The notes: generated by a model from the sequence alone, not told the origin. A stretch of 64,000 bases of DNA from Candidatus Magasanikiibacteriota bacterium (GCA_016189025.1 JACPGS010000014.1:16339-80338); one strand, 5' to 3'. Positions 12,788-64,000 are shown, counted from the first letter of the stretch. A program made the numbers and translations.

Positions 12788-12792
12788 AGCGT

Positions 12793-17115: not shown

Positions 17116-17146
17116 ACTGTCATTCCGAACTAATGTGAGGAATCTC
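17116..17146. mobile_element. Truncated copy (one terminus only) of the CTGTCATTCC palindromic mini-element; it overlaps and supplies the start codon of the 17135 gene.
   Basis: ctgtcattccgaactaatgtgaggaatctct matches the reverse complement of the left end of the leuS copy (ctgtcattccgaacgaacgtgaggaatctctg). The ATG of MRNLFLK lies inside it. Confidence 0.45.
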
Positions 17147-21621: not shown

Positions 21622-22187
21622 ACGCCGGAGGATTTAGTCAGCGTCGCCTGGTAGCGGCGCTGTCCCCGTTTGATTATTCCCTGCTGTTCCCGCGTTTCCG
21701 CGACCGAGAGTTCAACTTCGGCCGCCGGCGGCTCCCAGCGGGTCAGTTCTACTACCACTACTTGAGTTTCTAGCGCGGAAAACCCTGCCGGCGCTGCCCC
21801 GGGTTTAATCTGCCGCTGCAATTTTTCCCATAAAGCGGGCGTTACCAGCGCTTCCACCTCGCGGATGTTCTGGAAATTGCCGGCGCTGGAATAAGTATAG
21901 AAACGTTCAATAAAAATGCGGGCCGCCTGGCGCGCCGCCTGCTGTTCTACCTCTTCGGGAGTAAGCTGCCGCGCCGGTGCGGCCACTGGCGTCACGCTGC
22001 CAGCCGGAGCCGCTCCCCCAGGCACCGTTGCCGCCCCTCCGGCCGGGGCCGGCGCTTCCCCCGGCGCTTCGCCACCCGTAGTAACCGAGGGCGCCGCGCG
22101 CCGGCGCACCAAGAAAAACAGGCTGATGCCCAAGATAACTAAAATTACCAAACTGATGAGGATAAAAATCCGAGCGCGGAGAGTCAT
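21591..22187 (-). CDS. Hypothetical membrane-anchored protein.
   Basis: N-terminal TM ARIFILISLVILVILGISLFFLV, then a Pro/Ala/Gly-rich linker and a globular C-terminal part; no motifs seen. Confidence 0.35.
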   Translation of the reverse strand: MTLRARIFILISLVILVILGISLFFLVRRRAAPSVTTGGEAPGEAPAPAGGAATVPGGAAPAGSVTPVAAPARQLTPEEVEQQAARQAARIFIERFYTYSSAGNFQNIREVEALVTPALWEKLQRQIKPGAAPAGFSALETQVVVVELTRWEPPAAEVELSVAETREQQGIIKRGQRRYQATLTKSSGVWQVASFRAL

Positions 22188-22233
22188 ATTTGTCTACCGA
22201 TTATACTGAGGCCATCTAAAAAATCACTTTTAA

Positions 22234-22374
22234 CTGTCATTCCGAGCGCAGTCGAGAAATCTCTCTCGACTTCGCTCGAGACTGGCTCTTAATTTAGAAA
22301 ACAAGGGATTCCTCGACTTCACTCACTCCCCCTCGGCTTTGCTCGGGGTCGTTCATTTCGCTCGGAATGACAAG
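22234..22374. mobile_element. Full-length (141 bp) copy of the palindromic mini-element with 14-bp terminal inverted repeats ctgtcattccgagcg / cgctcggaatgacag; intergenic.
   Basis: The termini are perfect inverted repeats. The internal palindrome is gtcgagaaatctctctcgac. The interior shares ...gaggaatctct... and ...ccccctcg..tgctcggggtc... with the copy inside leuS (61778-61861, opposite orientation). Confidence 0.65.
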
Positions 22375-22387
22375 GGTGGCGAGTTTT

Positions 22388-26341: not shown

Positions 26342-26520
26342 CTGTAGAATAATGTTGACGATAATCGTTATCCGCCTGGTCGCTATCGCTATTGCTAAAA
26401 CTCACTTGGTTGGTCGCGGCAGACACTCTTTGGGTGCTCCCCCGACTTTAGATCGGGGTGCGCGCCCAAAGACACTCGTCTGCCGCGCCCTGATGCTAAC
26501 TAGTTATTTTTATTCTTCTC
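26342..26520 (+). repeat. Interspersed repeat family A, copy 2.
   Basis: See 1759-1938; this copy has left TIR ctgtagaataat and right attcttctcc. Confidence 0.8.
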
Positions 26521-38100: not shown

Positions 38101-41100
38101 GTCCCTGGCAGGGGCGATACACACGCCATTGGTACAGACGCCCGACCCGTCGGCTCCGCAGGGAGCGCCGTCTGGATTGCAGCTGTAAACTGCCGGGCCA
38201 GCGGTGGTCGGCACCCGTCTCACCAGCCGCCAGTCGGCCGGGGCGCTGGGGGGCGCGATATTCATCTGCCAGAGCTCTTCGGGAGGCGGCAGCCCCAAAA
38301 GCGAATATCCAGAATATTCCTGATTCCGCCAGCCTACCCCGCGTTTAACATAATCGGCGACAGTTAAGGCCGGGGTAGCGCCTTTGTTCTCCACCCAGTT
38401 GCCGCAATTAGTGAGGTCGCCCGGCTCGGTCGCCGGCGCCGCGGTATTGCAACGCCCTACTTCGTCGCATACTTCCCGCCAACGGGAAGTGGTCTGATCC
38501 CACACCCGGTGCGAGGAGCGGCACTGCAGCCACTCGCCGCATTCGCGGTCAGGCGCTACTTTAATGATGATGTTGGCATCGTTCTTGTTGCTGGCTGGCT
38601 CGGGCGGAACTAGCCGGCCGTCGTTGCGGTCGGATTTGCGGTAACTCGCCGCCGTATTCCACAGCTTGGCGGGGTTCGCTGTTTCGTCAAACAGGGCGCA
38701 GCCGTTTTTCAGACTCACTTCGCCGCTGCAGTCGTTTTTGTTGACCTTGTCGTTATTAAGGAAGTACCAGGGCCGGTTATTGTCGTTGCGGTCCACAAAT
38801 TCGCTACAGCCGGCTTCGGCCGCCGGACATTCGCCGACAAACCCGGCGTAAGTATTAACGTCGCCGGCCGACCACAAGCCATAGGAGCCGTCGGCCAAAG
38901 TATAATTGGGGTAACACGCGCGATCTTGGTTACACTTGTTGCCGGCGCCGCAGGCGGCATCGCTCGCGCAAATCTTAGTGGCATCGTTATCGCAGACCTT
39001 AACCCCGCTCCAGTACCAGCCGGCGCGGATGCCCTTATCCGGTACCGCCGGGCGATAAGCGCAAATCCGGTTGCCCTGCACGGCCGGATCTTTGGCATAA
39101 GTAGTGCCGCCCCTGGCGTCCAAGAGCGCGCTGCACCCCACCGCTTCGCTTTGGCAGAGCGCTTCGCGGTAGAGGGCAGGGTCGTTCTTAATCAGCGTGT
39201 CCTCAAACTGCGTGCCCGCTGCCGCCGGCACTAGAGCGCCAGCCGCGGTACAGCCGCGATCCGGCTCGCGGCAGATGGTTTCCTGATTATTTACCAGATA
39301 CCACGGCGTGGTGCTGGGCGTATCCGCGGGCAGATATACCGAGGAGGGGGTTAGTTGCGGACGCACCGCGGCGCCATTAATTTCTCCTTGGGCAGTTAAA
39401 ATGCCGGGCTCTACATCGCGCACGTCTACATAACAGCCCGGCTCCCCGGCCGGCACGGCGCAGGTGACCGGCGTGCGGCCGTCCGGGGCCGCCAGATCGC
39501 GGCCGTTAATGGTCAGCTTAAGAGTGCCGGGGCCGTTGCCTGGCAACCAGACGCGATACACCTGCGGGCCCTGGTCGGCTTCCGTCACCCGCCCGCCGGT
39601 CAGGGTGTTATAAGTATCCAAAACCGCAGTGCAGCCGATGGCCGCCTCGCGGCAGAGGAAGCTAAAATTAGTGAGGTTTTCGCTGCGGCCGTCCGCCGCC
39701 GTGTAGGCGCGACAGCCAAGAGCCTCGCCGGGCAGATTATCTTCCGGGTGAGAATCGCAGGCCGCCGGGATAGTGAGGGAATTTTTTAAGCGATAAAGAT
39801 AATCGCTCACTTCGGTGAGCTGGACATTGTCAATAAAGAACTGGCCGGGCGAAGCGGGATTAAAGAAAAGATACGCGCTGGTGGTGGCGCCGGTAAAAAT
39901 AACCGGGCCGTAGCGATAATACTGCCAGGCGTCGCCTAACCCGCGGCTCTCTAGAGTGGTATCAAAATTGCCGTCCGCATCCACCAGACGCACCGAGAGA
40001 TTCCCCCCGCTGCCTTTGGCCCAAAAGGTGAGGGTATAGCTTTCGCCCAGGCGCAGCGCTTCGCTATCAGTCAGACGGCGAATCAGCACCCCGCCGGCGC
40101 CGGAGACGGTAAGCGACTGTTCGTTGGCATGGGTGGATTCGGACGACAGCGCATAATTGGTGGCGCCGGCCGGCGCGCTCCAGGCCGGCAGATCCGCGGT
40201 GGTAGTAACGCCTTCAAAGGTATCGGTAAAAATCTGGCGCACGCGGTTGCCGCGCGGCCCCTTGTACTCGCGGCAGGATTCGGCCGCGGCGCTGCAGCTG
40301 GCGCTCGCGCCGGCGTTAGTCAAGACGCCGCCGGGCAGCCCGCGGTAATAGCAAAAGCCGTCGCGATATTCGCCGCCGCTGTAACACAATTCGCACCGGC
40401 CGCTCGCTAGCTCCCATTTGCCGCTTTCCGCCGCACACTCGGCAGCGCCAAACTCGCACCGCCCGTTATTCCACCGGCCGTGGCGGAGCGTGCAGGCCGC
40501 TTGGGTAGCCGCCCCGCTGACCAGCGCGGTGTACAGCTCCGGCGCGTCCAGCCGGTAATCGGTGCAGGAATTGGATACGGGAATAGTTTGGGCGAGCAGG
40601 CGATAATAAACCCGGCCTTGGTCATCGTTAAACTGCCGGCAATCTGCGTCCGCCTGTCCTGCTTGGTAGAGAGCCGCCGTGCATTTTTGCTCAAACCCAG
40701 CTAGTTCCTCTAGGGTGCGATAGAAATACTTGGGACCACCGCTGCCATCCGTTGCCAGAGTGTAAACGCGCAACTGGAATCCGGCTTGGGCGGTACCTTC
40801 AAACACCGTAAAATTCTTTTCTTTAGTTTTGGGGGTAGCGGGGTCCGGCAGCTGGCAAGGACGCAGCCTGGTAAAGTATTCCACCTGTTCAGCGCGACCC
40901 TCACTGACATTAGTAAAGGCGCGGCAGCCTTTTTCTTCGGCGCGGCACTCTTTGGCCAGATCCGGAATTAAATACGCCAGCGGCTCCCCGGCCGAATAAT
41001 CGCTTTCGGTTTCGCGATAAGCGTCATACCCCACGCACTGCGCCTCACAGCGGTCGCCGCTCACCACCTTGCCCGGAATCCGCTCGCCGGTTTCTTTGGC

Positions 41101-43305
41101 GGTGTACACCGCACAGCCCACTTCGTCGGGAATACAGGCCGGCGCATACTGCCCGCAGGCAGCCGGGGCGCCCGCGGCCAGGCGGTTCAAATCCGCCGGA
41201 TTTTCCGGCCACTGAATACCCGGGGCGGTGCGGTCAGCATCATAGCACCCCAGGTAATCGGGCGCTTTGCGCAAATTCAGCAAATCTCCGGCCGGGTCAG
41301 CGGCGGCCACAAACGCGGTGCAGCCCGCGGAGCGAGCGCCGCAGGTGGAAGCGGCCGGCAATTTAGCGTTAAAGTACACCGCATCCGAAGCAAAACCCAA
41401 AGCAGCGTCCGGCGTACTAGGCAGCTGCCACTTGCCGCTCGCATCCTGGCGCAGGCTGTAAGCGCGGCAGCCGACTGCCGCTTCGCTGCAGGAGCGGGTA
41501 TCCAGGGTGCGGGAGAGATAAGAAACTTCTTTCCCGCCTGACTGATAAGTCTGGCAGGTGCGATTTTCCGCCCGGCAGGTATCGGCATTAAATTTCCAGG
41601 CATTCTTCTCCCGCGCGCAATAGGCAAAAGTAGCGCAGGTTTTGTTATCCGGGGCATAAGCCACGCAGGTAGAGAGGTCGGCGCATTCGGTGAGGCGGGT
41701 CGGCACATCGCGCCCCAGATGCAGGGCCCCCGGCCCCAGGGCATTGCAGCGCGCCGGCGGCGCCTTGATTACCCAATCCGGATCAATCAGATGGCAATAG
41801 GGGAAGCGCGCCGGGTCGGGGCGCACGCCGGTAATCTCCCCGGCCGGATTGCGGATAAAGTCGCAGTCATTAAAGCCTTTCACTACGTCGCCCAAAATCC
41901 AGGGGCGATCCGGGTTGCTGTTCGCGGCGGCAATCTCAAAGCCCAGGGGCAGTATCCGCGCCTGGCGCAATACTTTAATGTTGCTGTAACAATAAGCATT
42001 CTGGCAGAATTGTTTTAAGTCGGCGTTCTCGGTCACCCGGCTCCCGGGAATCAGTTTGCGGTCAGCGTGCAGCCAGCCGCGCGCCAAGGCCGAAGCAACG
42101 GTAACGGTTTCACCGCCCGCCGCGTTCTGTAGCGCCAGCAAAAGGTCGTTGTCGGCGCGGCAGTTATAGGTGCCGCTCCCCTCGCAGTTGCCGAGCTCGG
42201 CAATTAAATCATAGCTTTCTTTGGCGCCAAGCTCCACTGCCAGAAATGAGCTGAATAATTCCTGGGCCGCGCGCCGGCCTCCCACGGCCCCGCCGGCTTC
42301 AAATTGCTGGGCAGCAGCCCCGGCGCCGAGACAATTTTGGCTGCCGTCGCGGCAGCCGCTGCCAAAGGGCAGAATACCCTTTTCCTGGTAATTTTTTACC
42401 ATCGTAGAAACCAGGGTATTCAGGAAAATTCCCAACACATTGGGAATGACCCTGATTTCGCCGGAAGTAAGGAGCGCCCGCACCTGCTCTTCGTCGCTTT
42501 CGCCTTGTTTGCTGGGGATGATGTTTTCAAATCCTTTTTGAATTAGCGCCGCCGGATTGGTAATCTGGTTGGAGATCAACGTGGTCTTAGCTAAAAAGCC
42601 TTTGCCTTCCTCGCGCTGCTTATCGGCCCCGGCCACTTTATTGCGAATCAGCTGATCAATTTTTTGGGTAGTTTTTAAATGAATGCCAAAATCGGTCTGG
42701 GATAATTCCAGATTGGCGCTGAATCTTTCGGCCAGCGATTCTTCGCTGTATTTGCTCCGCCAGGCATCGCCGCTAAACCACTCGCTGGTAAACTGCGAAA
42801 AACTGCACTTGCCTTTGAGCGGCGATCCCGGCTCGGCGCCGGGGACATCTTCAAAACCGGTGCGCAAACCAATGCGCAGCGCCAGATTAACCTTAACATC
42901 AGGAATCTGGCAGATATTTTCCACGCCAAACGCACTCCCTAGCTGTTCAATGCCGGCCCCCAGGGCGTCATCACCCACCTGCTTCAGATAATCGCCAAAT
43001 CCTTTAGTGAAAGCGAGCGGGCTTTGGCCCTTGCCCCCCGCGGCCAGCCACACGGCCGAGTCATAAGCGAATTTGCGCAGGGCATAAGCCACCACCCGGC
43101 TGGTGGCGGTGAGCACCGCGGCCTTCAAGCCGGCATAAATCTGATTGATGATCTTATTGGTGGTATCGGGAATGCTGCCGGTGATAAAAGCCGGCAAGCC
43201 TTGCGCCTGCGCCGGCGCCGGAATAAGCAGGGTGCCGGCGAGCGAAGTGGCAGCCAGCAATACCGCCAAAAGCCCGAGACTGAATTTTTGCCAGGGTTTA
43301 GGCAT
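35140..43305 (-). CDS. Giant (2721 aa) secreted cysteine-rich surface protein with a lectin/CBM-like beta-sandwich segment.
   Basis: The signal peptide MPKPWQKFSLGLLAVLLAATSLAGTLLIPAPAQAQG and many Cys clusters throughout are present. The segment ...LTFWAKGSGGNLSVRLVDADGNFD...FFNPASPGQFFIDNVQLTEV resembles carbohydrate-binding beta-sandwich modules. The gene is about 65% GC. Confidence 0.65.
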   Translation of the reverse strand: MPKPWQKFSLGLLAVLLAATSLAGTLLIPAPAQAQGLPAFITGSIPDTTNKIINQIYAGLKAAVLTATSRVVAYALRKFAYDSAVWLAAGGKGQSPLAFTKGFGDYLKQVGDDALGAGIEQLGSAFGVENICQIPDVKVNLALRIGLRTGFEDVPGAEPGSPLKGKCSFSQFTSEWFSGDAWRSKYSEESLAERFSANLELSQTDFGIHLKTTQKIDQLIRNKVAGADKQREEGKGFLAKTTLISNQITNPAALIQKGFENIIPSKQGESDEEQVRALLTSGEIRVIPNVLGIFLNTLVSTMVKNYQEKGILPFGSGCRDGSQNCLGAGAAAQQFEAGGAVGGRRAAQELFSSFLAVELGAKESYDLIAELGNCEGSGTYNCRADNDLLLALQNAAGGETVTVASALARGWLHADRKLIPGSRVTENADLKQFCQNAYCYSNIKVLRQARILPLGFEIAAANSNPDRPWILGDVVKGFNDCDFIRNPAGEITGVRPDPARFPYCHLIDPDWVIKAPPARCNALGPGALHLGRDVPTRLTECADLSTCVAYAPDNKTCATFAYCAREKNAWKFNADTCRAENRTCQTYQSGGKEVSYLSRTLDTRSCSEAAVGCRAYSLRQDASGKWQLPSTPDAALGFASDAVYFNAKLPAASTCGARSAGCTAFVAAADPAGDLLNLRKAPDYLGCYDADRTAPGIQWPENPADLNRLAAGAPAACGQYAPACIPDEVGCAVYTAKETGERIPGKVVSGDRCEAQCVGYDAYRETESDYSAGEPLAYLIPDLAKECRAEEKGCRAFTNVSEGRAEQVEYFTRLRPCQLPDPATPKTKEKNFTVFEGTAQAGFQLRVYTLATDGSGGPKYFYRTLEELAGFEQKCTAALYQAGQADADCRQFNDDQGRVYYRLLAQTIPVSNSCTDYRLDAPELYTALVSGAATQAACTLRHGRWNNGRCEFGAAECAAESGKWELASGRCELCYSGGEYRDGFCYYRGLPGGVLTNAGASASCSAAAESCREYKGPRGNRVRQIFTDTFEGVTTTADLPAWSAPAGATNYALSSESTHANEQSLTVSGAGGVLIRRLTDSEALRLGESYTLTFWAKGSGGNLSVRLVDADGNFDTTLESRGLGDAWQYYRYGPVIFTGATTSAYLFFNPASPGQFFIDNVQLTEVSDYLYRLKNSLTIPAACDSHPEDNLPGEALGCRAYTAADGRSENLTNFSFLCREAAIGCTAVLDTYNTLTGGRVTEADQGPQVYRVWLPGNGPGTLKLTINGRDLAAPDGRTPVTCAVPAGEPGCYVDVRDVEPGILTAQGEINGAAVRPQLTPSSVYLPADTPSTTPWYLVNNQETICREPDRGCTAAGALVPAAAGTQFEDTLIKNDPALYREALCQSEAVGCSALLDARGGTTYAKDPAVQGNRICAYRPAVPDKGIRAGWYWSGVKVCDNDATKICASDAACGAGNKCNQDRACYPNYTLADGSYGLWSAGDVNTYAGFVGECPAAEAGCSEFVDRNDNNRPWYFLNNDKVNKNDCSGEVSLKNGCALFDETANPAKLWNTAASYRKSDRNDGRLVPPEPASNKNDANIIIKVAPDRECGEWLQCRSSHRVWDQTTSRWREVCDEVGRCNTAAPATEPGDLTNCGNWVENKGATPALTVADYVKRGVGWRNQEYSGYSLLGLPPPEELWQMNIAPPSAPADWRLVRRVPTTAGPAVYSCNPDGAPCGADGSGVCTNGVCIAPARDNTAAAERLTCRAYPEEDAPFPNTLSLVDAPLFNGVKRCQESGPSAAGPTALACECDYTRVQYGDLTTKFWNYRAPNSANPLPRAGATLPGPKGVPPALCEGGTQAGKVCATNADCAPRPGATPDGTCQRLTREDKRIGWRGYCLEYDQSRPLNNDPKTHPCLTWWPVDTLQGALDINNQHAEAGYQNPERGGTFYCLNSSGGADAQGGHSFVTRPHLSISTNQFAVNPLPPDSSTEEAKIIQTDIEKITFQVVSSGPEDPAPGTIFEIWPNDPATQQASYKVKPKNKEDGDWQLGYAVAGRFLGQSHQLVLMYGSQLVQGNTADTYVKEDGQVCFPLAGGRCGDLSGNIFTRIIGDPWQSSSCPGANRGNGNWHAIKVRFDLETRAFLGYDFSFCDDSPDSGGIDYKVTFHLREWCRAIAEAKVDYAAPETAPWTNRLWNKLRQFPIQALRFTSSAGKTNLNYNVNTPFSPFGSLDANSPEGLASPVILTPFSLPSEAGQVGRPCSGLVERTNLPATCRCPSGGLEECRYWILDPQASIGAPYSCADAAGSRICTRSEEQQGKLVTVKTAAGEYLAPEGRNNLGQIFAAVKRIFRFDLTPASTASGYTGYQVTDERIATAGSLFADFVYDYTATGDLHDGNTVGVAPQRPQLWAPFRCDAADDCFEGPTSRDVFTVNGVTSTAKISGAANRTAVLRFFGAADSNQMPLRGVAVDWGDGRVIRYAGQYRNQRGKIEDICRQGARVCQGDPAVNGRTCSADADCQGQLQHYQCSIRETEGRCRDDRSIACTASDNSDCPFFDNDSNRPRTPCSVPSTKYCDINGQKGDVCTTDQACPPLPNQPTPTCSSGLRCTVGGQSCTQLNGSCGPARWCVEAGQAPTFDRQEGATCDNAFFQFEHVYQCAADAGNLNWLPNDSRCRAAGLPGGCCIYRPRVQLTDNWGWCNGNCGRTDSAGRNLGCYREECQDNSPTSGAWTTFQGNVIVAPSQ

Positions 43306-46133: not shown

Positions 46134-46142
46134 ATTTTGAAA

Positions 46143-46324
46143 CTGTAGAAGAATGCCGAACATAATCGTTATCCGCCTGGTCGCTATCGCTATTGCTAAA
46201 ATTAGCCTGGTTAGTCGCGGCAGACACTCTTTGGGTGCTCTCCCGACTTGAGATCGGGATGCGCGCCCAAAGACACTCGTCTGCCGCGCCCTGATGCTAA
46301 CTGGTTTTTTTAATTCTTCTCCAG
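46143..46324 (+). repeat. Interspersed repeat family A, copy 3.
   Basis: TIRs are ctgtagaagaat / attcttctccag (11/12); the core is identical to the other copies. Confidence 0.8.
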
Positions 46325-46341
46325 TCTCATTTTTAGCCTGG

Positions 46342-52450: not shown

Positions 52451-53368
52451 CTAATTGTCTTGGCGAAAATATACAATCTTGGCGCGCCATTGCTGCCGGT
52501 AACGCTCCCGGCTGTCGTTCAGGTGGAATTTAAGCGCGCCCGGGGCAATCACCACGCTGTGGTCAGGGGAGTTGGCGCGCTGCTTAATTTCCGGCAACAG
52601 CCAATGCCATTGAATAAATCGGGTCAGGCGTTCGGCCCAATCATCCCTTTTACCGCCCGACGGCCTTAATTCTGATTGAATAGGCGGCGTTGGCCGCTCA
52701 ATATTAGGCAAATAACTTCGGGTCCACCGGTTAACGGCAATCAGCTGATCGTAATAATGGTGCGGATCATAAAGCGGCAACATCTGATGCAGCCAGTAAG
52801 CAAAATGAATATCGTCATCCGCCACCCGGAGGGGCGCTAAATCAAGCTGATTAGCCGCCACAAAAAAACACAAACAAATCCGGTCGCGGCGCTCTCTGCC
52901 ATACACCCGCCAGCCTAATAATCGCAATAAGGCGTTAGCAAAAAACCGCGCCAGCCAAAGGCGGCCCGGCGCGGTGATAATAAAGAAGTCAAGGTCGCTC
53001 TCTGGCGCCGCATTCTCGGCCGCCACCGAGCTGGAAAGGAATACGGCCCGGATAAAGGGAAGCCGGCCGACAAGGCGAGCCGCCTGGCTAGCGCGTTGGC
53101 GCTTTTGCTCGCTTACTAGCCCCCTCGCGCGGCGCTCTTCTATCAACAAACCCCGGCCCGCTAAATAATGGAATCCGAATTTTTCTGCTACCGTGCCCCC
53201 GGTCTTCAGCCGGTTTAGCGCCGCCGCAAATGCAGCGGCTGCCCCCGACGGCGCCTGCCATAAATAGCGCCACAGCTCCTCTTTAGTGAGGGGAAAATCA
53301 AGTAAATCAAAATAAGCAAGCGTTTCGCTGATAGATTGTTCCAGCGTGCGCACACATTTAGAGCTCAT
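52451..53368 (-). CDS. Hypothetical protein, possibly with a nucleotidyltransferase fold.
   Basis: ...SDLDFFIITAPGRLWLARF... resembles the hG[GS]...[DE]h[DE]h nucleotidyltransferase motif; the assignment is weak. Confidence 0.3.
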   Translation of the reverse strand: MSSKCVRTLEQSISETLAYFDLLDFPLTKEELWRYLWQAPSGAAAAFAAALNRLKTGGTVAEKFGFHYLAGRGLLIEERRARGLVSEQKRQRASQAARLVGRLPFIRAVFLSSSVAAENAAPESDLDFFIITAPGRLWLARFFANALLRLLGWRVYGRERRDRICLCFFVAANQLDLAPLRVADDDIHFAYWLHQMLPLYDPHHYYDQLIAVNRWTRSYLPNIERPTPPIQSELRPSGGKRDDWAERLTRFIQWHWLLPEIKQRANSPDHSVVIAPGALKFHLNDSRERYRQQWRAKIVYFRQDN

Positions 53369-53519
53369 TTCAAAACCTGCTTTCGCAAGCGAGCCGTTTG
53401 ATTTTCGTAGCGAGGCGAAGCGGCGGAGGCGGAAACGTATTGGAAATACGTTGAAGCCGAGCCGCTAGCCACAGCCGAAAATCAAACGGGGTAGCCGAAA
53501 TGAGGTTTTGAAATGAGCT
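53362..53519. repeat. Nested palindromic element exactly filling the intergenic gap (outer 17-bp inverted repeat agctcatttcaaaacct / aggttttgaaatgagct; inner cgtttgattttcg / cgaaaatcaaacg; central aacgtatt..aatacgtt).
   Basis: The left arm overlaps the ATG of the 52451..53368 gene and the right arm ends 2 nt before the stop of the 53521..53826 gene. Confidence 0.55.
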
Positions 53520-53520
53520 C

Positions 53521-53826
53521 TTACTGCTTGGTCGTTGGCATCACCCCGCTAAGGGCGGTCTGCCGGCCTGGCAAGGCGGAACGCTCCTCCGCCGCCGCCC
53601 GCTCCCCTCCCACGGCATCCTCTACGATCAAGGCTTCCGGCGTAAAACGTTTTACTTGCGAGGGCGCCACGCGATAATTAATCCGCGCGCTCCAGCGCGA
53701 CCCGATGCTGTAAGCACCAATGCTGCTAGTGCCAAAATCAACTTCCACATCTTTCACTACTCCTAAACGGATTCCCGATTCGGTCAATGCCGGCAAACCC
53801 AGCAGTTGTCTAGCGGAAGAACGCAT
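53521..53826 (-). CDS. Small PRC-barrel-like hypothetical protein.
   Basis: ...GIRLGVVKDVEVDFGTSSIGAYSI...LIVEDAV... is weakly PRC-barrel-like; it is adjacent to yidC. Confidence 0.3.
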   Translation of the reverse strand: MRSSARQLLGLPALTESGIRLGVVKDVEVDFGTSSIGAYSIGSRWSARINYRVAPSQVKRFTPEALIVEDAVGGERAAAEERSALPGRQTALSGVMPTTKQ

Positions 53827-54649: not shown

Positions 54650-54820
54650 GAATGATGGTGACATTGTTATCCGCCAGGGCGCTATCGCTATTGCTAAAAC
54701 TCACTTGGTTGGTCGCGGCAGACACTCTTTGGGTGCTCCCCCGATTTAATCGGGGTGCGCGCCCAAAGACACTCGTCTGCCGCTCCCTAATGCTAACTGG
54801 TTTTTTCGATTATTCTACAG
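54650..54820 (+). repeat. Interspersed repeat family A, copy 4 (left terminus diverged or truncated).
   Basis: The core ...ttatccgccagggcgctatcgctattgctaaaactcacttggttggtcgcggcagacactctttgggtgctcccccgatttaatcggggtgcgcgcccaaagacactcgtctgccgc... and right TIR attattctacag are present. Confidence 0.75.
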
Positions 54821-57841: not shown

Positions 57842-59596
57842 TCATTTTCTCGTCGCCGGATGGCCATAACGATAAACTACCACAATCCCCGCTCCATAAG
57901 CAAGGACGGTAGCCCACAGGGGAATGCTTAACTCGGCCGCGGCGCCGCGCCAAGCACCGAACCACGCAATCACACCCAGCACATATTTAAGGCCGAGCGC
58001 AGTGGTTGCCGCGGCTAACTGCCCCGCAGGAAAAAACAACCAACTGATGCTGGCGGCTAACGCCCCTCCCAGCATCAGCCAGGGAATAGTCCAGAGCACT
58101 AAAATATTAACCAGCGGCGCTACCAAAGAAAAGCGCCCAAACTGATACAGGATGAGCGGAGTGGTGGCAATGATCGCGGATAGGGTAGAGAGGAGCGACT
58201 CACGCAAAAACGCCAGCCGGTCACCCCGAGCGAGGCCGTTTAACAGACGGCCGAGCGAAGCAATCCCCCATCTTACCGCTGACGTAATTGATCCGGAACG
58301 CCGGGGGACCGCTACCTCATCCCCCGCCGCTCTGCGCTCAAGGATCTTCGCGATGACGCTCTGGAGAATGGGCGACACATAGACTAACCCCATGGTGGAA
58401 AGAAAAGATAGCTGGAACCCGGCATCCCACAGCACGACATAAGGATTATTCAGCGTCATGAGAGCCGCGGCCAAAGCCAGGGCATTGCCCATCCGCGACA
58501 AGCGCCCCAGATGCTGGCCGATGAGCACCAGACTACCCATAATTGCCGCCCGAACTACCGAGGCCGAAGCGCCGGTAAACACCACAAAAAGCGCTAACAT
58601 CAAGAGCACCAGCCAAAACGCCTGGCGCCGCCACAGGCCGATACTGATGAAGGCGCTCATCAGTATGGTTGCAATAATCGTAACATTGTAACCGGAAACC
58701 GCAATAATATGGGTAAGGCCGGTGCGATTAAAGTTCTCCATTACTTCTGGGGGAAGTCCGCTCCGGCTGCCGTAAAGAAGTCCCGCCACCAGACTACTCT
58801 CCGGCTCGGGCCATAATTGGTCAATCTGACTGCGGACTTCAGACTTCAGCCAGAGGATTTTTTTCATTGGCAGTGCTCCTAGGCGCCAATTGTCATCCCC
58901 GTGTAGGCGGGGATCCAGATTCTGGATTCCCACTTCCGTGGGAATGACAGGGTGTACCTTCGGCCTCTCGCACCCTGCCCACACCCCGCCGAGCGCCAGA
59001 TATTTGTCGTAACGAAACGAACTGTCGGCCCGGCGCTCCGGTTTCTGCAACTGGCATTCAAGGCTCAACCAATCGCCATAATTATACTGGGGATACAAAC
59101 GAGTCTTGATAATTATTTTACCGCCCACTGCTTTCATGCCAACCGAAGAAGTAATAGACTCCCTCCCTGTCATTCCCGCGAAAGCGGGAATCCAGTCGGG
59201 GATGACAATCATAGACACGCTAACCACATACCTCGCCTCGCTAATCCGAACATCCGGCTCCTCGCTTATCCGGCCGACTAAAGTAACGCGTCTGCCGTTA
59301 TATGAACACAAGTTGTGTTCATCAGTACAGTCGGGAATCGTAATCAATAATCGCCACACGCCCAGCAGAACAAAAAACGTGCTCAAGCCGGCAAAACGAA
59401 TGGCCGGCCGGCGCCAAACCATTATTACCGCGACCAATAGAAAAAACAGCGCCCCGTAGACTGTTAAAGTCGCGCTCGGCTTACTCGGAAAATCTCCGGC
59501 CGAGGCAGCCGTGGCGCCGATAATAAAACAAAAACAAAACGCCAAAAACGTTTTGCTTTTTGAATTGAGGAACTGAAGAAATTTATCCGACCACAT
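57842..59596 (-). CDS. comEC: ComEC/Rec2 competence channel protein (membrane domains), carrying two in-frame mini-element insertions.
   Basis: The N-terminal DUF4131-like region and polytopic 'Competence' domain are present (...GLTHIIAVSGYNVTIIATILMSAF...). The peptide segments SMIVIPDWIPAFAGMTGRE and HPVIPTEVGIQNLDPRLHGDDN are encoded by palindromic elements. Confidence 0.8.
   Translation of the reverse strand: MWSDKFLQFLNSKSKTFLAFCFCFIIGATAASAGDFPSKPSATLTVYGALFFLLVAVIMVWRRPAIRFAGLSTFFVLLGVWRLLITIPDCTDEHNLCSYNGRRVTLVGRISEEPDVRISEARYVVSVSMIVIPDWIPAFAGMTGRESITSSVGMKAVGGKIIIKTRLYPQYNYGDWLSLECQLQKPERRADSSFRYDKYLALGGVWAGCERPKVHPVIPTEVGIQNLDPRLHGDDNWRLGALPMKKILWLKSEVRSQIDQLWPEPESSLVAGLLYGSRSGLPPEVMENFNRTGLTHIIAVSGYNVTIIATILMSAFISIGLWRRQAFWLVLLMLALFVVFTGASASVVRAAIMGSLVLIGQHLGRLSRMGNALALAAALMTLNNPYVVLWDAGFQLSFLSTMGLVYVSPILQSVIAKILERRAAGDEVAVPRRSGSITSAVRWGIASLGRLLNGLARGDRLAFLRESLLSTLSAIIATTPLILYQFGRFSLVAPLVNILVLWTIPWLMLGGALAASISWLFFPAGQLAAATTALGLKYVLGVIAWFGAWRGAAAELSIPLWATVLAYGAGIVVVYRYGHPATRK
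58891..58950. mobile_element. Palindromic mini-element (60 bp, subtype II) inserted in-frame within comEC.
   Basis: tgtcatcccc-gtgtaggc-ggggat-ccagattctgg-attccc-acttccgt-gggaatgaca has terminal inverted repeats, two arm hairpins and a central ccag..ctgg palindrome. It is translated in comEC as VIPTEVGIQNLDPRLHGDD. Confidence 0.65.
59167..59208. mobile_element. Palindromic mini-element half-copy (42 bp) inserted in-frame within comEC.
   Basis: ctgtcattccc-gcgaaagc-gggaat-ccagtc-ggggatgacaat is translated as IVIPDWIPAFAGMTG. Confidence 0.65.
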
Positions 59597-59643
59597 ACGA
59601 GGAGCGCCCCAGTCACTCCCCGTTTGACCAGCGGTCTGATGTT

Positions 59644-60276
59644 TTAAATTTCTCTGCTTTTACCGTCCTCCAGCATCATCCATTCTATGCCCGCTTGTTT
59701 AAATTCCCGCTCGGCGTGCGTATAGTAAGGATTGGCTGGCTTCAAAAAAGCGTCATGGGTTGGGAATATTACCTGGGGTTTTACCTGCAAACCGTAATCA
59801 AGCATATCAGCAAGTTTCATCCAGGGCGCCGCAATCGGACAGGCCAAAATGTCTACCGCGATGTTTGGCACATTCAAAGCATCGCCCGGATGAAACAAAC
59901 GACCGGCAATCAAGTATCCGGTATTATCTACCACCGGCAAAGTAGAGTAAATAAAGGCATGTTTTTCGCCGACCCCTTCAATTTTTACTCCCGCTACTTC
60001 GCTCACCTGTTTATTCCCCAAATTCTGATAAGCCACCCCCGCTTCTGCCAGCTTCTTTCCCACTCCCGCATTAGTATAAATGATACAGTTTGGATTAGAT
60101 AGCAATAATTTCTTGATATTCTCAATACCAAGATGATCTTGATGTTCATGAGTAACCAAAATAGCGTCCAAATTAGTAAGTTCGGGAATGGTTGACCAAA
60201 CGCCCGGGTCAATCAGAATCCGTGCCCTGCCTTCTTCAACCAACAGGCAGGAGTGGCCGAATTTGGTGATGCGCAT
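59644..60276 (-). CDS. MBL-fold metallo-hydrolase.
   Basis: ...ILVTHEHQDHLG... (HxHxDH) is present. The ATG at 60276 (MRITKFGHSCLLVEEG...) is preferred over the track start at 60324. Confidence 0.7.
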   Translation of the reverse strand: MRITKFGHSCLLVEEGRARILIDPGVWSTIPELTNLDAILVTHEHQDHLGIENIKKLLLSNPNCIIYTNAGVGKKLAEAGVAYQNLGNKQVSEVAGVKIEGVGEKHAFIYSTLPVVDNTGYLIAGRLFHPGDALNVPNIAVDILACPIAAPWMKLADMLDYGLQVKPQVIFPTHDAFLKPANPYYTHAEREFKQAGIEWMMLEDGKSREI

Positions 60277-60281
60277 ACTTG

Positions 60282-60893
60282 CTAGATTAGTGCCAGTTTG
60301 GTTTGATATAGTATCTTTCGACAAGTTGAACGATCTCCCTGATGACAGATCGCTAAGGTATTTGCCTTAAACCGAACCGGGAGTTTGTCTGTCTTCGCAA
60401 ATGAAGTTCGCAAAGTAAGGTGCGGATCGAACTTTTTAAAGCTTGCCGCCTGCAAAAAATTTTGTAACCAACGCGGGGTAATGGGATCGAAATATTCACC
60501 GCGTTTCTTAAAATACACTGCGGGAGTAGCTCGCTGGTGAGTGAAGGGACGAAGCTGCGCAATAATTTTTTCATGTAATTTCTGTAAAGCGGCGGTTTTC
60601 TTTGCTTTGAACTGAAACATTCTGCCACTGCCAACCATCACTGAGCGCAAATCTGTTAAAGTGATAAGCACAGACTTAAATTGTTCAGCGACTTCACCTA
60701 ATACTTGCCGCGCTTTGGGCATATCCTTCTCTGCCAATACACACATAAATAACGACAGATGTGGTAAATTATCCTTTACGTTCAACGAAAAAGGACGCTT
60801 TTGACGACCAGCAAACTCTTGACTAATTTGAATGCACTTATCACGTATTTCTTTTGGCGGCAAAAGCACTACGTCAATAGCAAAATACTTCAT
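60282..60893 (-). CDS. 2H-phosphoesterase superfamily protein (LigT / 2'-5' RNA ligase-like).
   Basis: Two H-x-[ST]-x motifs are present at the expected spacing: ...NLPHLSLFM... and ...DPHLTLRTSF... Confidence 0.6.
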   Translation of the reverse strand: MKYFAIDVVLLPPKEIRDKCIQISQEFAGRQKRPFSLNVKDNLPHLSLFMCVLAEKDMPKARQVLGEVAEQFKSVLITLTDLRSVMVGSGRMFQFKAKKTAALQKLHEKIIAQLRPFTHQRATPAVYFKKRGEYFDPITPRWLQNFLQAASFKKFDPHLTLRTSFAKTDKLPVRFKANTLAICHQGDRSTCRKILYQTKLALI

Positions 60894-60905
60894 AATCCGT
60901 TCGAA

Positions 60906-63900
60906 TCAAACTACAATGCTCACCAACCTTCCCTTTACATAAATTATTTTCTTCGGCGCTTTTCCTTCCAGCCATTTTTGCACCCGATCGTCCGATAAGG
61001 CATTCCTCTTTATTATCTCTTCATCCAAATTCGTGCCGACCTGCTGTCGAGCGCGGACTTTACCATTTACTTGTATAACTATTGTCATCCTTTCCTCATA
61101 CAGATTCTTCTCATCTACGATCGGCCACTTTTCGGATGCTAAACTTCCATTATTTTCAAAAAATGGTTCGCTGTTCCATAATTCATCAGCAATATGCGGT
61201 GCAAATGGTGAAAGAAGCTTTAAGAATATTTTCCAAACTCCTCTTGAGATAACAGAATTAGATGATATTTCGTTAATAAATTCCATCATTTTAGCAATTG
61301 CTGTATTGAATTTCATTTCATCAATATCTGTGGTTATTTTTCGAATTAGCTTATGCACTAATTTTAATTGGTCATCAAAAATCCAACCGTCCTCTCCTTC
61401 TCTGTCGAATTTATTATTATTCTGTATTGCCCACACTTTTTCTAAAAACCTCTTCACTCCTTTCACCCCATTGGTATCCCACGCCACCGGCTGGTCAAAC
61501 GGCCCCATAAACATAATGTACATCCGCAACGCGTCCGCGCCGTACTGCTCTACCATTTCATCGGGGTTGACGACGTTGCCGCGGCTCTTGCTCATTTTTT
61601 CTCCGTCTGGACCCAGGATCAGACCGTGGCTGGTGCGTTTTTTGTACGGCTCGCGCGTGGGCACCAGGCCAAGGTCGTAGAGAAACTGATTCCAGAAGCG
61701 GGAATACAATAAGTGCAATACAGTATGCTCCATACCGCCGTTGTACCAATCCACGCCACCACCAGTACTGTCATCCTGACCCCGAGCAGGAGCGAGGGGG
61801 AAGGATCTCTGTCCGTTTGGCGATTGGGACAGAGATTCCTCACGTTCGTTCGGAATGACAGTATTGCGACCCATCCAGTACTCTAACTTCTTCATTGAGG
61901 CAAACTCTTTATTATTATGCGGATCGCAGTAGCGCAAAAAGTACCAGCTGGACCCGGCCCAGTTCGGCATCGTATCGGTTTCGCGCCGCGCCGGGCCGCC
62001 GCAGCGCGGGCAGGTGGTTTTTACCCATTCCGTCATTGCCGCCAGAGGCGACTCGCCGGTATCGGTGGGCTGATATTTGGCTACTTTGGGGAGCTCTAAA
62101 GGTAGTTTATCTTCGGGTAGCGGGATCCAACCGGAATTAAAAGATTGAACGTCGGGAAATTCATCAAGAATTTCCGGCAATTCCAGAATTCCAGCGCGTT
62201 CGTTAAAGTGGCCCTTATTCTTAAAAATTTTCACCTTTGCCCTCAGTGGGGAGTAATTATCTGTAACTGACAGCGGAACGAACGGGTCGTCCTCTGATAA
62301 ATATATAATGGTTTCCTTCGCCAGGTTTCTAACTTTATCCAAGCTCTGGTTAGCCGCATTAAATTTTTTAATACACTCAATACTCTCCTCGTCGCATCCG
62401 GCATCCCGCAAATTTTTCCAATTAATCGCTTCTTGCCTGTCGCCCGTCGGGCTGATTAGAATTAACCTTTCAATTTGGGCGCTGTGCTTTAGCACAAACT
62501 GACAGGCCGCTGGCCCGCCTAAGCTGTGCCCAACCACAATCAAACTTTCGTCTTTCCCGATAGGCAAATCTGCCAAGGTTTTTAACCACTTATCGAGCGA
62601 CGGATGAACATTGTTTGGTAAATTCGGAGCCAAAACTTCATAACCTCTCTTTTTCATTTCTTTACGAAACCAGGGAATCCAGTTCTCTTCGCTGTATCCG
62701 TAAATTCCATGAATGTATAAAATTTTTGGTTTTCTCTGCGCACAATTCTCGCAATACACCAGCGGTATCGGCTCGCCCCAATAACGTTGGCGACTAAACA
62801 CCCAATCCCGCAATTTATAATTCACCTGCCGCTTGCCTATGCCCTGCTCCTCCAGCCAGGCAATCATTTTGGCTTTGGCTTCTGGCGTTGAGAGGCCGGT
62901 GAGAAAATCGGAATTAATGCTGATACCATCGGGAGTGTACGCCTGCCCCCCATGGTTAAACCAGTTCCAAATAAACGGGCCGTCAACTACATTAATAAAA
63001 TTACCGACCTCCTCTGGTTCAATCCAGACTGGAGTGTGTTTTTCCATTTCTGCCGCCGACACTGTATCCTGTTCATCAGAATTTAATTCAAAATGCAATA
63101 CTCTGATTTCGGCATAACGATTTTCATCTTTATGCGCAGCGTGATACTCGGTATGCACTTCTAAACCAAGATCTTTGACAAAACGCAAATTACGATAGCC
63201 GGTTTCTTCCTTAATCTCGCGCTCGGCCGATACCACGGGGTCTTCTCCCGCCTCTGTCCCGCCAATAATAAAAGTGCGGGGTTCGCGTCCTTCCCACATC
63301 GCTCCTTTCCATTGCAGCATTAAAATCTTGCCGTCGCTCTTACGACGCACAATGGCATGTACGGTTTGGCGACGCTTAGTCTTTTTTCCCGGCTGGGGAG
63401 GGTGAACCGGCTCGATAAAATGAGCGGCAACGACCTGCTTGATTGGCAGATGGTATTTACTAGCAAATTCCCAATCCCGCTGGTCGTGCGCCGGCACCGC
63501 CATAATCGCGCCGGTGCCGTAGCTCGCGAGCACATAGTCCGCGATCCACACCGGGATGGCTTCGTTATTTACCGGATTGATAGCTTTGATGCCTTTCAGC
63601 TCCACGCCGGTTTTCTCGCGGCCTTCGGCGGTGCGTTCTTGTTCGGTTTTTTTATTAACCTGTTCAAGATAGGCGCCTACTTCGGCGGCATTCAAAATTC
63701 TGGATTTCAACCGCTTCACCAACTCGTGTTCGGGCGCGAGCACCATGTACGTCGCGCCGAAGAGGGTATCGGGGCGGGTGGTAAAGACTTCGACTATCAT
63801 CCCCGACTGGATTCCCGCTGGCGCGGGAATGACAGAGAAACGGACAACCGCGCCCTCGCTCCGGCCAATCCAATTCTCCTGTTGCACCCGCGCTTGGGGA

Positions 63901-64000
63901 ATGTAGTCAACTTCTTTCAAACCGGCGAGGAGCTTGTCGGCATACTTTGTAATCGCCAGCATCCATTGTTCTTTATTGCGCTTTTCCACCGGCGCATAGC
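60906..64000 (-). CDS. leuS: Leucyl-tRNA synthetase, 5'-partial (N-terminus with HIGH motif beyond window end). It carries two embedded foreign domains (Nudix; alpha/beta-hydrolase) and two mini-element-derived peptide inserts.
   Basis: It aligns with bacterial LeuRS: ...QENWIGRSEG..VVRF...TTRPDT (CP1 editing start)...GTGAIMAVPAHDQRDWEFASKY...VNYKLRDWVFSRQRYWGEPIP...GMEHTVLHLLYSRFW...KMSKSRGN (KMSKS)...C-terminal anticodon-binding and Leu-specific domains ...VIQVNGKVRA... Confidence 0.9.
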   Translation of the reverse strand, partial: YAPVEKRNKEQWMLAITKYADKLLAGLKEVDYIPQARVQQENWIGRSEGAVVRFSVIPAPAGIQSGMIVEVFTTRPDTLFGATYMVLAPEHELVKRLKSRILNAAEVGAYLEQVNKKTEQERTAEGREKTGVELKGIKAINPVNNEAIPVWIADYVLASYGTGAIMAVPAHDQRDWEFASKYHLPIKQVVAAHFIEPVHPPQPGKKTKRRQTVHAIVRRKSDGKILMLQWKGAMWEGREPRTFIIGGTEAGEDPVVSAEREIKEETGYRNLRFVKDLGLEVHTEYHAAHKDENRYAEIRVLHFELNSDEQDTVSAAEMEKHTPVWIEPEEVGNFINVVDGPFIWNWFNHGGQAYTPDGISINSDFLTGLSTPEAKAKMIAWLEEQGIGKRQVNYKLRDWVFSRQRYWGEPIPLVYCENCAQRKPKILYIHGIYGYSEENWIPWFRKEMKKRGYEVLAPNLPNNVHPSLDKWLKTLADLPIGKDESLIVVGHSLGGPAACQFVLKHSAQIERLILISPTGDRQEAINWKNLRDAGCDEESIECIKKFNAANQSLDKVRNLAKETIIYLSEDDPFVPLSVTDNYSPLRAKVKIFKNKGHFNERAGILELPEILDEFPDVQSFNSGWIPLPEDKLPLELPKVAKYQPTDTGESPLAAMTEWVKTTCPRCGGPARRETDTMPNWAGSSWYFLRYCDPHNNKEFASMKKLEYWMGRNTVIPNEREESLSQSPNGQRSFPLAPARGQDDSTGGGVDWYNGGMEHTVLHLLYSRFWNQFLYDLGLVPTREPYKKRTSHGLILGPDGEKMSKSRGNVVNPDEMVEQYGADALRMYIMFMGPFDQPVAWDTNGVKGVKRFLEKVWAIQNNNKFDREGEDGWIFDDQLKLVHKLIRKITTDIDEMKFNTAIAKMMEFINEISSNSVISRGVWKIFLKLLSPFAPHIADELWNSEPFFENNGSLASEKWPIVDEKNLYEERMTIVIQVNGKVRARQQVGTNLDEEIIKRNALSDDRVQKWLEGKAPKKIIYVKGRLVSIVV
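61778..61861. mobile_element. Palindromic mini-element (84 bp, subtype I) inserted in-frame in leuS.
   Basis: ctgtcatcc...ggatctctgtcc-gtttggcgattg-ggacagagattcc...tcggaatgacag has an internal 10-bp perfect inverted repeat. It is translated as ...TVIPNEREESLSQSPNGQRSFPLAPARGQDDS..., an insert between conserved LeuRS YWMGRN and GGVDWYNGGMEH with no counterpart in E. coli LeuRS. Confidence 0.65.
62154..62729 (-). other. Embedded alpha/beta-hydrolase (serine hydrolase, RBBP9/YdeN-like) domain inserted in the LeuRS catalytic core.
   Basis: About 190 aa lie between the conserved LeuRS blocks RQRYWGEPIPLV and PTDTGESP...TEWVKTT. E. coli LeuRS has about 15 aa here. The nucleophile elbow VVGHSLGG (G-H-S-x-G), ...KILYIHGIYGYSE... 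and later Asp/His candidates (SEDDPF, KGHFNE) are present. The segment is about 40% GC. Confidence 0.7.
62946..63395 (-). other. Embedded Nudix hydrolase domain inserted near the C-terminal end of the LeuRS CP1 editing domain.
   Basis: The Nudix box GGTEAGEDPVVSAEREIKEETGY (G-x5-E-x7-R-E-U-x-E-E-x-G-U) lies within about 150 extra residues between conserved LeuRS blocks FASKYHLPIK and GIGKRQVNYKLRDW. Confidence 0.75.
63798..63836. mobile_element. Palindromic mini-element half-copy (39 bp, subtype II) inserted in-frame in leuS.
   Basis: tcatcccc-gactgg-attccc-gctggcgc-gggaatgacag is translated as VIPAPAGIQSGM between the conserved VVRF and IVEVFTTRPDT of LeuRS. Confidence 0.65.

Follow-up and report, generated by a model that had tools for sequence, protein, structure and literature searches.

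In-frame hairpin repeats in leuS and comEC of a Patescibacteria genome and their probable kinship with CGTC-REP, dRS3 and NTS elements

Short palindromic elements are found in frame within the leuS and comEC genes of a Candidatus Magasanikiibacteriota bacterium, on a 64,000-nucleotide stretch of one strand (GCA_016189025.1, JACPGS010000014.1:16339-80338) to which we refer throughout as the window. Comparison with known repeats, with orthologous proteins and with predicted structures makes it probable, in our judgement, that these elements are non-autonomous hairpin repeats of the CGTC-REP/dRS3/NTS-SRM superfamily (REP, repetitive extragenic palindrome), dispersed through the genome and surviving in frame where they fall in permissive loops of the encoded proteins. 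The genome is a member of the Patescibacteria, or Candidate Phyla Radiation (CPR). The window ComEC is 100% identical to a protein from a Candidatus Magasanikbacteria metagenome-assembled genome (MAG), and its nearest non-identical relative has 49% identity; the nearest relatives of the LeuRS come from Magasanikbacteria, Uhrbacteria and Paceibacteria, with 54% identity by BLASTP and 57% over aligned columns.

Both host genes are on the minus strand. The leuS gene (60906-64000, its N-terminus cut at the window end) was identified from its translation, from Pfam and from 120 Patescibacteria homologues, and comEC (57842-59596) from its translation and the Pfam DUF4131 and Competence domains. At leuS site 1 (63796-63836, minus strand) a short-type element comprises a hairpin, GTCATTCCCGC-GCCA-GCGGGAATCCAG on the coding strand, and an 11-nt inverted terminal remnant; its GTC..GAC core of 38 nt occupies 63796-63833, with the left end decayed to ATCAT, and the element, which includes a dRS3 core at 63811-63830, encodes VIPAPAGIQSGM (fragment residues 56-67). 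Site 2 of leuS (61768-61861, minus strand) holds a long-type element, a three-hairpin palindrome whose core at 61770-61859 is 90 nt, or 30 codons, in length and which encodes VIPNEREESLSQSPNGQRSFPLAPARGQDD (residues 714-743). In comEC, site A (59167-59208, plus strand) carries a short-type element with the NTS hairpin on the non-coding strand of the gene and an 11-nt inverted terminal; the core, 59169-59206, is again 38 nt, and the coding strand reads VIPDWIPAFAGMT (residues 131-143). Site B (58890-58950) is a short-type dimer of two hairpins with their heads outward, whose 57-nt core (58892-58948, 19 codons) encodes VIPTEVGIQNLDPRLHGDD (residues 217-235).

These four copies, together with an intergenic and a truncated copy, had been picked out in a sequence-only reading of the window, and all six are indeed present. 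The left end of the long leuS copy, however, had been set at 61778, whereas the CTGTCAT terminus is at 61768, 10 nt away. The peptides quoted for the intragenic copies are exactly those encoded, the frame is preserved in each case, and both open reading frames (ORFs) run uninterrupted across the inserts. The description of the hosts as essential genes has to be narrowed, as comEC is not an established essential gene, and the list of intragenic copies was sound but incomplete, since two further probable in-frame copies, at 58220-58357 in comEC and at 42427-42450, had been missed.

The recurrence of the motifs is well above expectation. The exact string CTGTCATTCC occurs six times on the two strands of the 64-kb window, whereas 100 dinucleotide-preserving shuffles average 0.02 occurrences, and GTCATTCC is matched nine times, where about 1.9 matches are expected from base composition. 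The dRS3 core, ATTCCC-N8-GGGAAT, has four exact matches (58926, 59172, 63811 and 42428) against 0.00 in the shuffles, none of which contained it. Matches resembling GTCATTCC at 27575 and 21425 were judged to be due to chance.

A single family had been proposed for these copies. They are related, but they fall into two subtypes. The short type, TGTC-ATTCCCGC-NNNN-GCGGGAAT-CCAG, has a stem of 8 bp, a loop of 4 nt and a tail that reads CCAG. At 58890-58950 it forms a heads-outward dimer; at 59167-59208 and, in the opposite orientation, at 63796-63836, a single hairpin is joined to the final 11 nt of an inverted arm. The long type folds into three hairpins, with arms of the form TGTCATTCCGAAC-GAAC-GTGAGGAATCTC and a central hairpin TCTCTGTCC..GGACAGAGA; its members in the window are 22234-22374, 61768-61861 and the truncated 17117-17150. 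When folded as single-stranded DNA (ssDNA), the site B dimer (58889-58952) gives a three-way structure with z = -4.73, the intergenic long copy (22232-22376) has z = -4.19, and the other three copies have z-scores of -2.6 to -3.0 (-2.96 for leuS site 1, -2.6 for comEC site A); the fold of the truncated copy at 17117-17150 is not significant against shuffles. Compensatory stem variants are present within the window (ATTCCCGC/GCGGGAAT, ATTCCCAC/GTGGGAAT and ATCCCCG/CGGGGAT) and are common across the 120 genomes listed. Because such variants accompany fold z-scores that reach -4.7, it is the hairpin itself that appears to be under selection. Five of the six reading frames of an arm are open, the sixth reading GAA-TGA.

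This architecture closely resembles that of the CGTC REPs, which have a CGTC or TGTC head, an 8-bp stem starting with AT, a 4-nt loop and an unpaired CCA tail, and occur mostly as dimers (Di Nocera et al. 2013, PMC3733652). The same authors equated CGTC-1 with the Neisseria repeat dRS3 and the R. conorii Rickettsia palindromic element RPE-6, and CGTC-4 with RPE-4, and catalogued intragenic CGTC and GTAG REPs in tRNA synthetase, truB, uvrA and other genes from several phyla; no dedicated transposase was then known for CGTC REPs (PMC3733652). The 28-nt NTS contains dRS3, and its ssDNA hairpin is bound by a 94-aa GIY-YIG nuclease, SsnA, which cuts a few nucleotides upstream of the hairpin head and needs a 5' GTC for cutting and a 3' C for binding (Chenal et al. 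2025, PMC11893778). SRM motifs flank ssn genes across bacteria, 71% of ssn homologues having them nearby and 42% having them on both flanks; the NTS-ssnA-NTS arrangement has been called insertion sequence (IS)-like, and Rickettsia, Wolbachia, Neisseria and Sphingomonas have hundreds of NTS/SRM copies (PMC11893778).

In the window, the sequence at 59168 is TGTC-ATTCCCGC-GAAA-GCGGGAAT-CCAG, with equivalent arms at 63836 and 58950 on the minus strand and at 58891 on the plus strand, and with the dimer at 58890-58950. Relative to the NTS consensus CGTCATTCCCGCGMAVGCGGGAATCYRG, which was searched for with at most one mismatch, the short arms have one or two mismatches, that at 59168-59195 having one (5' T for C). 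The SRM pattern HGTCWYN(0-2)YYVSBRHN(0-5)WNVSBRGN(0-2)RNCYNB is matched twice, at 58891-58918 and 59168-59195, compared with 0.34 +/- 0.55 times in shuffles; the arms at 63836 and 58950 fail it in the loop only. All four short arms read GTC-AT..AT-C, retaining the nucleotides for predicted Ssn cutting and binding. The elements have terminal inverted repeats, small size, no coding capacity and multiple copies, as do MITEs, miniature transposable elements with inverted repeats, and they share with RPEs the in-frame reading of a palindrome as a peptide at a site that orthologues and AlphaFold models indicate to be structurally permissive. They do not group with the GTAG REPs and their RAYT transposases, as the heads are TGTC and no association with a Y1 transposase was seen in the loci inspected. 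NCBIfam gave no RPE match for the window peptides, and none for control peptides from a Rickettsia endosymbiont either. Judged by sequence, the window elements are best assigned to the CGTC-REP/dRS3/NTS-SRM superfamily. Their likeness to RPEs, which the sequence-only reading had put forward as an analogy, is probably one of homology, given the equivalence of CGTC-1 with RPE-6 and of CGTC-4 with RPE-4, which is taken from PMC3733652 and not from an alignment made here.

Alignments of 18 LeuRS and 20 ComEC orthologues, with 45-63% identity, bear directly on the origin of the encoded segments. The 30-residue segment at leuS site 2, located between YW(M) and VDWYNGGMEH, is missing from 17 of the 18 orthologues and present in the remaining one, P0009. 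The site 1 segment is in a hypervariable loop directly before TTRPDT, for which several orthologues have a minimal loop and others have unrelated inserts. At comEC sites A and B, roughly half of the orthologues or more have a short loop or an empty one. At site A, P0122 and P0123 carry long-type peptides (VIPSEARADEESLSQTTNGQRSL..), two orthologues have inserts of unrelated sequence and the others show only a short or empty loop; at site B, seven orthologues carry different members of the superfamily (the P0141 protein reads ..LDPRFRGDDNW) and about half have nothing inserted. A third comEC loop, site C, holds VI[PA]...[RN]D or ..MT elements in at least 10 orthologues. Because insert 2 is missing from 17 of 18 LeuRS sequences, and the other sites are often empty or occupied by different subfamilies, we conclude that the segments are insertions rather than ancestral features. 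This agrees with the earlier claim that they separate blocks that follow one another without a break in canonical LeuRS and ComEC, and largely excludes their being ancient conserved parts of these proteins.

It is hardly credible, in view of the alignments, that the segments are ancient protein parts or chimeras generated at repeats during metagenome assembly. The source is a MAG, and one orthologue does have leuS insert 2 in common with the window, but the segments are missing from most orthologues, and a given loop holds differing subtypes from one lineage to another. The peptides, moreover, can be traced to both orientations, and to several frames, of a single DNA palindrome, the conserved LeuRS and ComEC blocks are in frame on both sides, and the order leuS-comEC is conserved on related contigs. 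Removal of the segments before the mature protein is made, in the manner of an intron or intein and leaving canonical proteins, is very improbable too, as 38-141 nt is too small for group I or group II introns or for inteins, and a preserved frame with a length of 3n would be needless if the segments were spliced out. No Rfam family was found on the elements in either region at E <= 1, the only match in the whole window at gathering thresholds being a tRNA-Gln, and R. conorii proteins with an N-terminal RPE-1 have been reported to be expressed in vivo (PMC3733652).

AlphaFold models built on these alignments place the inserts where a surface location had been expected, in low-confidence coil or at the tip of a beta-hairpin. 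The long leuS insert is modelled as coil with a predicted local confidence (pLDDT) of 25-36 over residues 710-754, and the short one forms the tip of a beta-hairpin leading into the editing domain, with pLDDT < 50 at residues 62-64. Both comEC site A (residues 135-151) and comEC site B (residues 221-237) are modelled as coil with pLDDT < 50. The inserts should thus add floppy surface loops. In the LeuRS and ComEC orthologues the same hot-spot loops also hold other repeat-derived peptides, such as NFQFPISNF..SNDKI, TNPKSQTNSKSQ and SPTRGETERGVSF, and several unrelated families of small repeats seem, from these sequences, to be colonising CPR proteins.

The hairpin is by no means confined to this genome. 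A scan with the 27-nt hairpin over one genome per species gave, among the matches listed, Proteobacteria (including Neisseria and a Rickettsia endosymbiont), Chloroflexi, Planctomycetes, Nitrospirae and Desulfobacterota, as well as several CPR lineages and a Nanoarchaeota MAG; the listed hairpins are usually heads-outward dimers with a spacer of 10-100 bp. An identical dimer is in frame in the IleRS of the Rickettsia endosymbiont, in keeping with the proposed likeness to RPEs, and other in-frame dimers are found in the IleRS of a Sphingomonadales MAG, in UvrA and TruB, in a Parcubacteria Tgt and in a Nanoarchaeota DNA methylase. A naive ORF-spanning test gave many spurious ORFs on high-GC loci, and only hosts confirmed by Pfam were retained. 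On two related CPR contigs the intragenic habit is pronounced: every copy on L121, the contig of P0009, is intragenic (two in TsaD, three in LeuRS), and L122, the contig of P0127, has a single intergenic copy beside those in Fpg, LeuRS, ComEC (three) and hypothetical ORFs. A bAvd/23S_rRNA_IVP-family gene at L122:1917-2294 adjoins thioredoxin, upstream of leuS; genes of this family are often linked to diversity-generating retroelements.

For the long type, 100 copies could be evaluated among the left-arm matches listed from metagenomes, a copy being scored as inside a gene if the ORF around it was 200 aa or longer and extended for 50 aa or more to either side. By this measure 28 of the 100 are inside ORFs, compared with 57% of random positions on the same contigs; long-type elements are depleted about two-fold in genes, and are far from excluded from them. 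The NTS hairpin is also found in at least 120 viral or prophage contigs from IMG/VR (L123-L242), several of which (L123, L148, L186, L211 and L212) carry an Ssn-like GIY-YIG gene, and viral contigs are a possible route of spread between phyla. The long-type arm pattern had no matches among the IMG/VR contigs. A profile of eight long-type insert peptides (31 positions), searched against 1.84 billion representative proteins, returned seven weak matches to unrelated repeat proteins and provides no measure of prevalence. Literature searches for the insert peptide strings (VIPAKAGIQ, AFAGMT, RGNDG and others) gave only collagen-type noise, and those for MITEs or palindromes in CPR bacteria gave nothing relevant.

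A candidate partner for the elements is found on related contigs. In L354, a CPR contig, the order is the 3' end of leuS, TGTCATCCCGAACGAATGTGAGGGATCTCTGTCC, a 99-aa ORF with a single GIY-YIG domain (PF01541), GGACAGAGATTCCTCGCTATGCTCGGAATGACA and then comEC, so that the arm-GIY-YIG-arm unit (L354:196-590) lies between the two genes that host the window elements. Its left arm is identical at 31 of 34 positions to the long leuS copy in the window, the differences including a compensatory change from T-A to C-G. In L307, a gene-less copy lies beside a second arm-GIY-YIG-arm unit, and the units on both contigs share their termini with the window MITE. The GIY-YIG ORFs of L354 and L307 are assigned by Pfam to PF01541 and are similar to the Ssn-like ORFs found beside NTS. 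The near identity of the L354 and window arms points to the long type being a MITE-like deletion derivative of an arm-GIY-YIG-arm unit. Elsewhere on L354 (2040-2107) ComEC takes its C-terminus from a short-type dimer (SFPRKRESSGGQSSGSPFSRG*), the stop codon being supplied by the ATGAC of the element.

These observations suggest the following scheme. Each arm would have a [C/T]GTC head and, after a stem that begins with AT, a short loop and the stem's returning strand, would end in a C(CA) tail; in single-stranded form it would present the motif bound and cut by a small, single-domain GIY-YIG nuclease of the Ssn family. Two inverted arms with their heads outward would make up a MITE-like unit, the short type being a single arm or a dimer, and loss of ssn from an arm-ssn-arm unit would give rise to the long type, with the central hairpin TCTCTGTCC..GGACAGAGA as the leftover junction. 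An Ssn-type nuclease, acting on the ssDNA hairpins and cutting just outside the head, at what would be the element border, could then spread the elements. Given a very high coding density in the Magasanikbacteria genome, many insertions would strike genes, and a copy would survive if its length was 3n, if it was read in one of the five frames without a stop and if it fell in a permissive surface loop, such loops being struck repeatedly. Translation of the surviving copies would lengthen loops of LeuRS and ComEC by disordered segments. Mobility dependent on Ssn, translation of the inserts and their neutrality are what we infer from the evidence assembled here.

Real in-frame elements could instead be moved by a different enzyme, such as a RAYT or IS200-IS605-type Y1 transposase or an IS110-family recombinase, or only by recombination between copies. 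We think this quite unlikely, given the arms nearly identical to those of the window MITE that surround GIY-YIG genes, the SRMs that flank so many ssn homologues on one or both sides, and the position of the Ssn cut, just outside the hairpin head, which coincides with the element boundary. It gains some plausibility from the lack of a dedicated transposase for CGTC REPs in 2013 (PMC3733652), from dRS3 being a known target of a phage recombinase (PMC11893778), from the 64-kb window having no ssn gene, and from an adjacent GIY-YIG gene being present at only 2 of the 120 long-type metagenome loci listed and at a handful of NTS loci.

Several points weigh against the scheme of Ssn-driven insertion that we favour. 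No ssn homologue was found in the 64-kb window, either by tblastn or with a two-sequence hidden Markov model run on ORFs of at least 50 aa, and no transposition activity has been demonstrated for any Ssn, the only documented role of SsnA being that of an ssDNA nuclease with a modulating effect on transformation (PMC11893778). Target-site duplications are not readable, the flanks having in common only a conserved Y before TGTCAT; the element at 61768-61861 has TA on both sides, yet this is part of the palindrome. The databases hold no near-identical strain with an empty site, the identities of the best LeuRS and ComEC relatives being those given above. Finally, leuS insert 2 is shared with P0009 at an identical site and with the same extra flanking residues. 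The flanks of this insert are 84% identical in P0009, but P0001 (83%) and P0002 (82%), which are equally close, do not have it. An ancestral insertion later lost with precision, a site-specific re-insertion or concerted evolution would each fit this distribution, and the flank identities do not discriminate between them. Comparison of the shared insert in the window and on L121 shows that the arm and hairpin parts are conserved and the middle has diverged; conservation of arms inside a disordered loop hints at selection or gene conversion, rather than pure neutrality.

This last observation also fits the proposal that the in-frame copies are themselves selected, either as DNA hairpins acting in cis as Ssn sites, for example in the cleavage of imported homologous ssDNA and so tuning recombination at leuS and comEC, or as structured mRNA elements. 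NTS flanking genes in Neisseria do lower transformation in an SsnA-dependent manner (PMC11893778), every short arm of the window retains the binding and cutting nucleotides, and one of the two host genes encodes the DNA-uptake channel. Even so, we consider selection of this kind unlikely. The depletion of the listed copies in ORFs is that expected of mildly deleterious insertions, the host proteins are unrelated to each other, decayed copies exist, as at comEC site C, and concerted evolution among copies would conserve the arms as well.

The relationship to other described systems can now be made more precise. With CGTC-1 REPs, dRS3 and NTS the window elements share the [C/T]GTC head, the 8-bp stem starting with AT (ATTCCCGC), the 4-nt loop, the CCA(G) tail, dimers with variable spacers, occasional in-frame sites in the genes for aminoacyl-tRNA synthetases, TruB and UvrA, and spread across phyla. 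They differ in having a CPR host, which is covered by neither PMC3733652 nor PMC11893778, in a head that is always TGTC, in the intragenic position of most copies in the window and the two related contigs, and in the lack of ssn from the window. RPE-6 and RPE-4 (Ogata et al. 2002, via PMC3733652) are likewise palindromes kept as in-frame peptide insertions in housekeeping proteins, in a host of another phylum. RPE-1, the classic in-frame Rickettsia element of ~150 bp (Ogata et al. 2000), resembles the long type in size class (90-141 nt), in frame, in predicted surface location and in having no recognisable transposase inside the element, a likeness in these described traits; in contrast, the long type has SRM-like arms and a traceable arm-GIY-YIG-arm relative.

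The L354 and L307 units match the NTS-ssnA-NTS units (PMC11893778) in having inverted arms around a single-domain GIY-YIG gene of ~100 aa, but their arms are a long-type variant with a 9-position stem and tandem G.A mismatches, not canonical NTS, and the window has only gene-less derivatives. The REP/BIME-RAYT systems (GTAG REPs) and the IS200/IS605-derived PATEs similarly have hairpins that are acted on as ssDNA, dimers and no obvious target duplication; the head in the window family is TGTC/CGTC rather than GTAG, however, and its partner is a GIY-YIG nuclease rather than a Y1 (HUH) transposase. ERIC, QMITE1 and the Anabaena MITEs (reviewed in PMC10969869) are small inverted-repeat elements that sometimes create in-frame fusions, but these are sporadic; frequent in-frame copies that return to the same loops are a trait that the window shares with Rickettsia.

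Other copies in the window are less complete or lie outside the two host genes. At comEC site C (58220-58357, minus strand), 138 nt bounded by GTCATCGCGAAG...CTCGGGGTGAC encode VIAKILERR...LARGD (residues 414-459, 46 codons); this is probably a decayed long-type copy, a tentative assignment, since its palindrome is not significant on ssDNA folding (z = -1.4). The intergenic long-type copy at 22234-22374 is 141 bp in length with 14-bp terminal stems, and is flanked by ORFs 21591-22187 and 22388-24244. A truncated long-type left arm (17117-17150, plus strand, right end approximate) directly follows the stop codon of ORF 15480-17114 and aligns with the long leuS copy, including four upstream bases (AATA-CTGTCAT). 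It overlaps the GTG start of ORF 17135-17983 and supplies the first residues (VRNLF) of that protein, whose N-terminus is signal-peptide-like. A candidate solo hairpin at 42427-42450 (minus strand), GTCATTCCCAA-TGTG-TTGGGAAT (that is, GTCATTCCCAATGTGTTGGGAAT), matches the dRS3 pattern within ORF 35140-43305; it is in frame, is read as VIPNVLGIF, and has z = -4.34 for the extended hairpin, so that this 2721-aa ORF is probably a third gene with an in-frame copy. The ORF is the larger of two adjacent giant ORFs on the minus strand, the other being 29739-35105 (1788 aa).

The window LeuRS also contains two entire foreign domains, which Pfam identifies as NUDIX and Ser_hydrolase, encoded at 62162-63371 (minus strand). 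The NUDIX domain (fragment residues 209-331) follows the editing domain, and the Ser_hydrolase or alpha-beta hydrolase domain (residues 426-612), with a GHSLGG motif, is directly after PIPLVYCENC; both are predicted by AlphaFold with a confident fold, with pLDDT about 90. One or both are present in most of the top 120 Patescibacteria LeuRS homologues, some of which have HAD, methyltransferase, DUF559 or Ham1 domains, added to these or replacing one of them, and identities between relatives, taken domain by domain, form a mosaic. A literature search on NUDIX or hydrolase insertions in LeuRS found no paper, and these domain insertions may be more novel than the palindromic inserts. Unrelated inverted repeats occur in the window at 26427-26472 and 54726-54769, at 53355-53526, at 1747-1950 and 46138-46329, and at 12792-12892; among them are two intergenic hairpins with identical 17-nt arms (TCTTTGGGTGCTCCCCC / GGGTGCGCGCCCAAAGA), one pair of 31-nt arms 110 nt apart, and two loci with common TGAAACTGTAGAAGAAT arms.

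How much of this is new? The sequence-only reading had thought in-frame survival undescribed in such a genome. The CPR host is indeed new, but intragenic CGTC and GTAG REPs in aminoacyl-tRNA synthetases, TruB and UvrA were published in 2013 (PMC3733652), and the family, its spread across phyla and its in-frame habit were already known. New here are the Patescibacteria host, the high intragenic density, the recolonisation of loops by different subfamilies, and the three-hairpin long type, with arms nearly identical to those flanking a GIY-YIG gene on a related contig. How RPE-like palindromes move, and why they come to lie in frame in housekeeping genes as often as they do, has been an open question since 2000. 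The window and its related contigs provide a compact test system, in which the GIY-YIG unit with nearly identical arms between leuS and comEC makes Ssn-dependent mobilisation testable.

The in-frame habit thus reaches the Candidate Phyla Radiation, where intergenic space is scarce, and the recurrently occupied loops mark out, as a natural map, where LeuRS, ComEC and TsaD tolerate insertion. Should the elements be no more than passengers, the practical lesson is one for annotation: the VIP..GIQ, ..RGND and ..AGMT peptides of CPR proteins derive from repeats, and alignments and phylogenies ought to be made with them masked. A more far-reaching possibility, which we put forward tentatively and with more doubt than conviction, is that Ssn-type GIY-YIG nucleases are the missing mobilisers of the CGTC-REP/dRS3/RPE-6/-4 superfamily, and that their gene-less derivatives in CPR bacteria are a major recurrent source of loops in essential proteins (LeuRS, TsaD, ComEC and Fpg), these loops being recolonised by different subfamilies and the arms being kept as ssDNA recognition sites, for example on DNA imported via ComEC. 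Were this so, with Ssn enzymes as mobilisers and the arms functional, the in-frame copies would represent an active interface between mobile elements and protein evolution, rather than tolerated junk.

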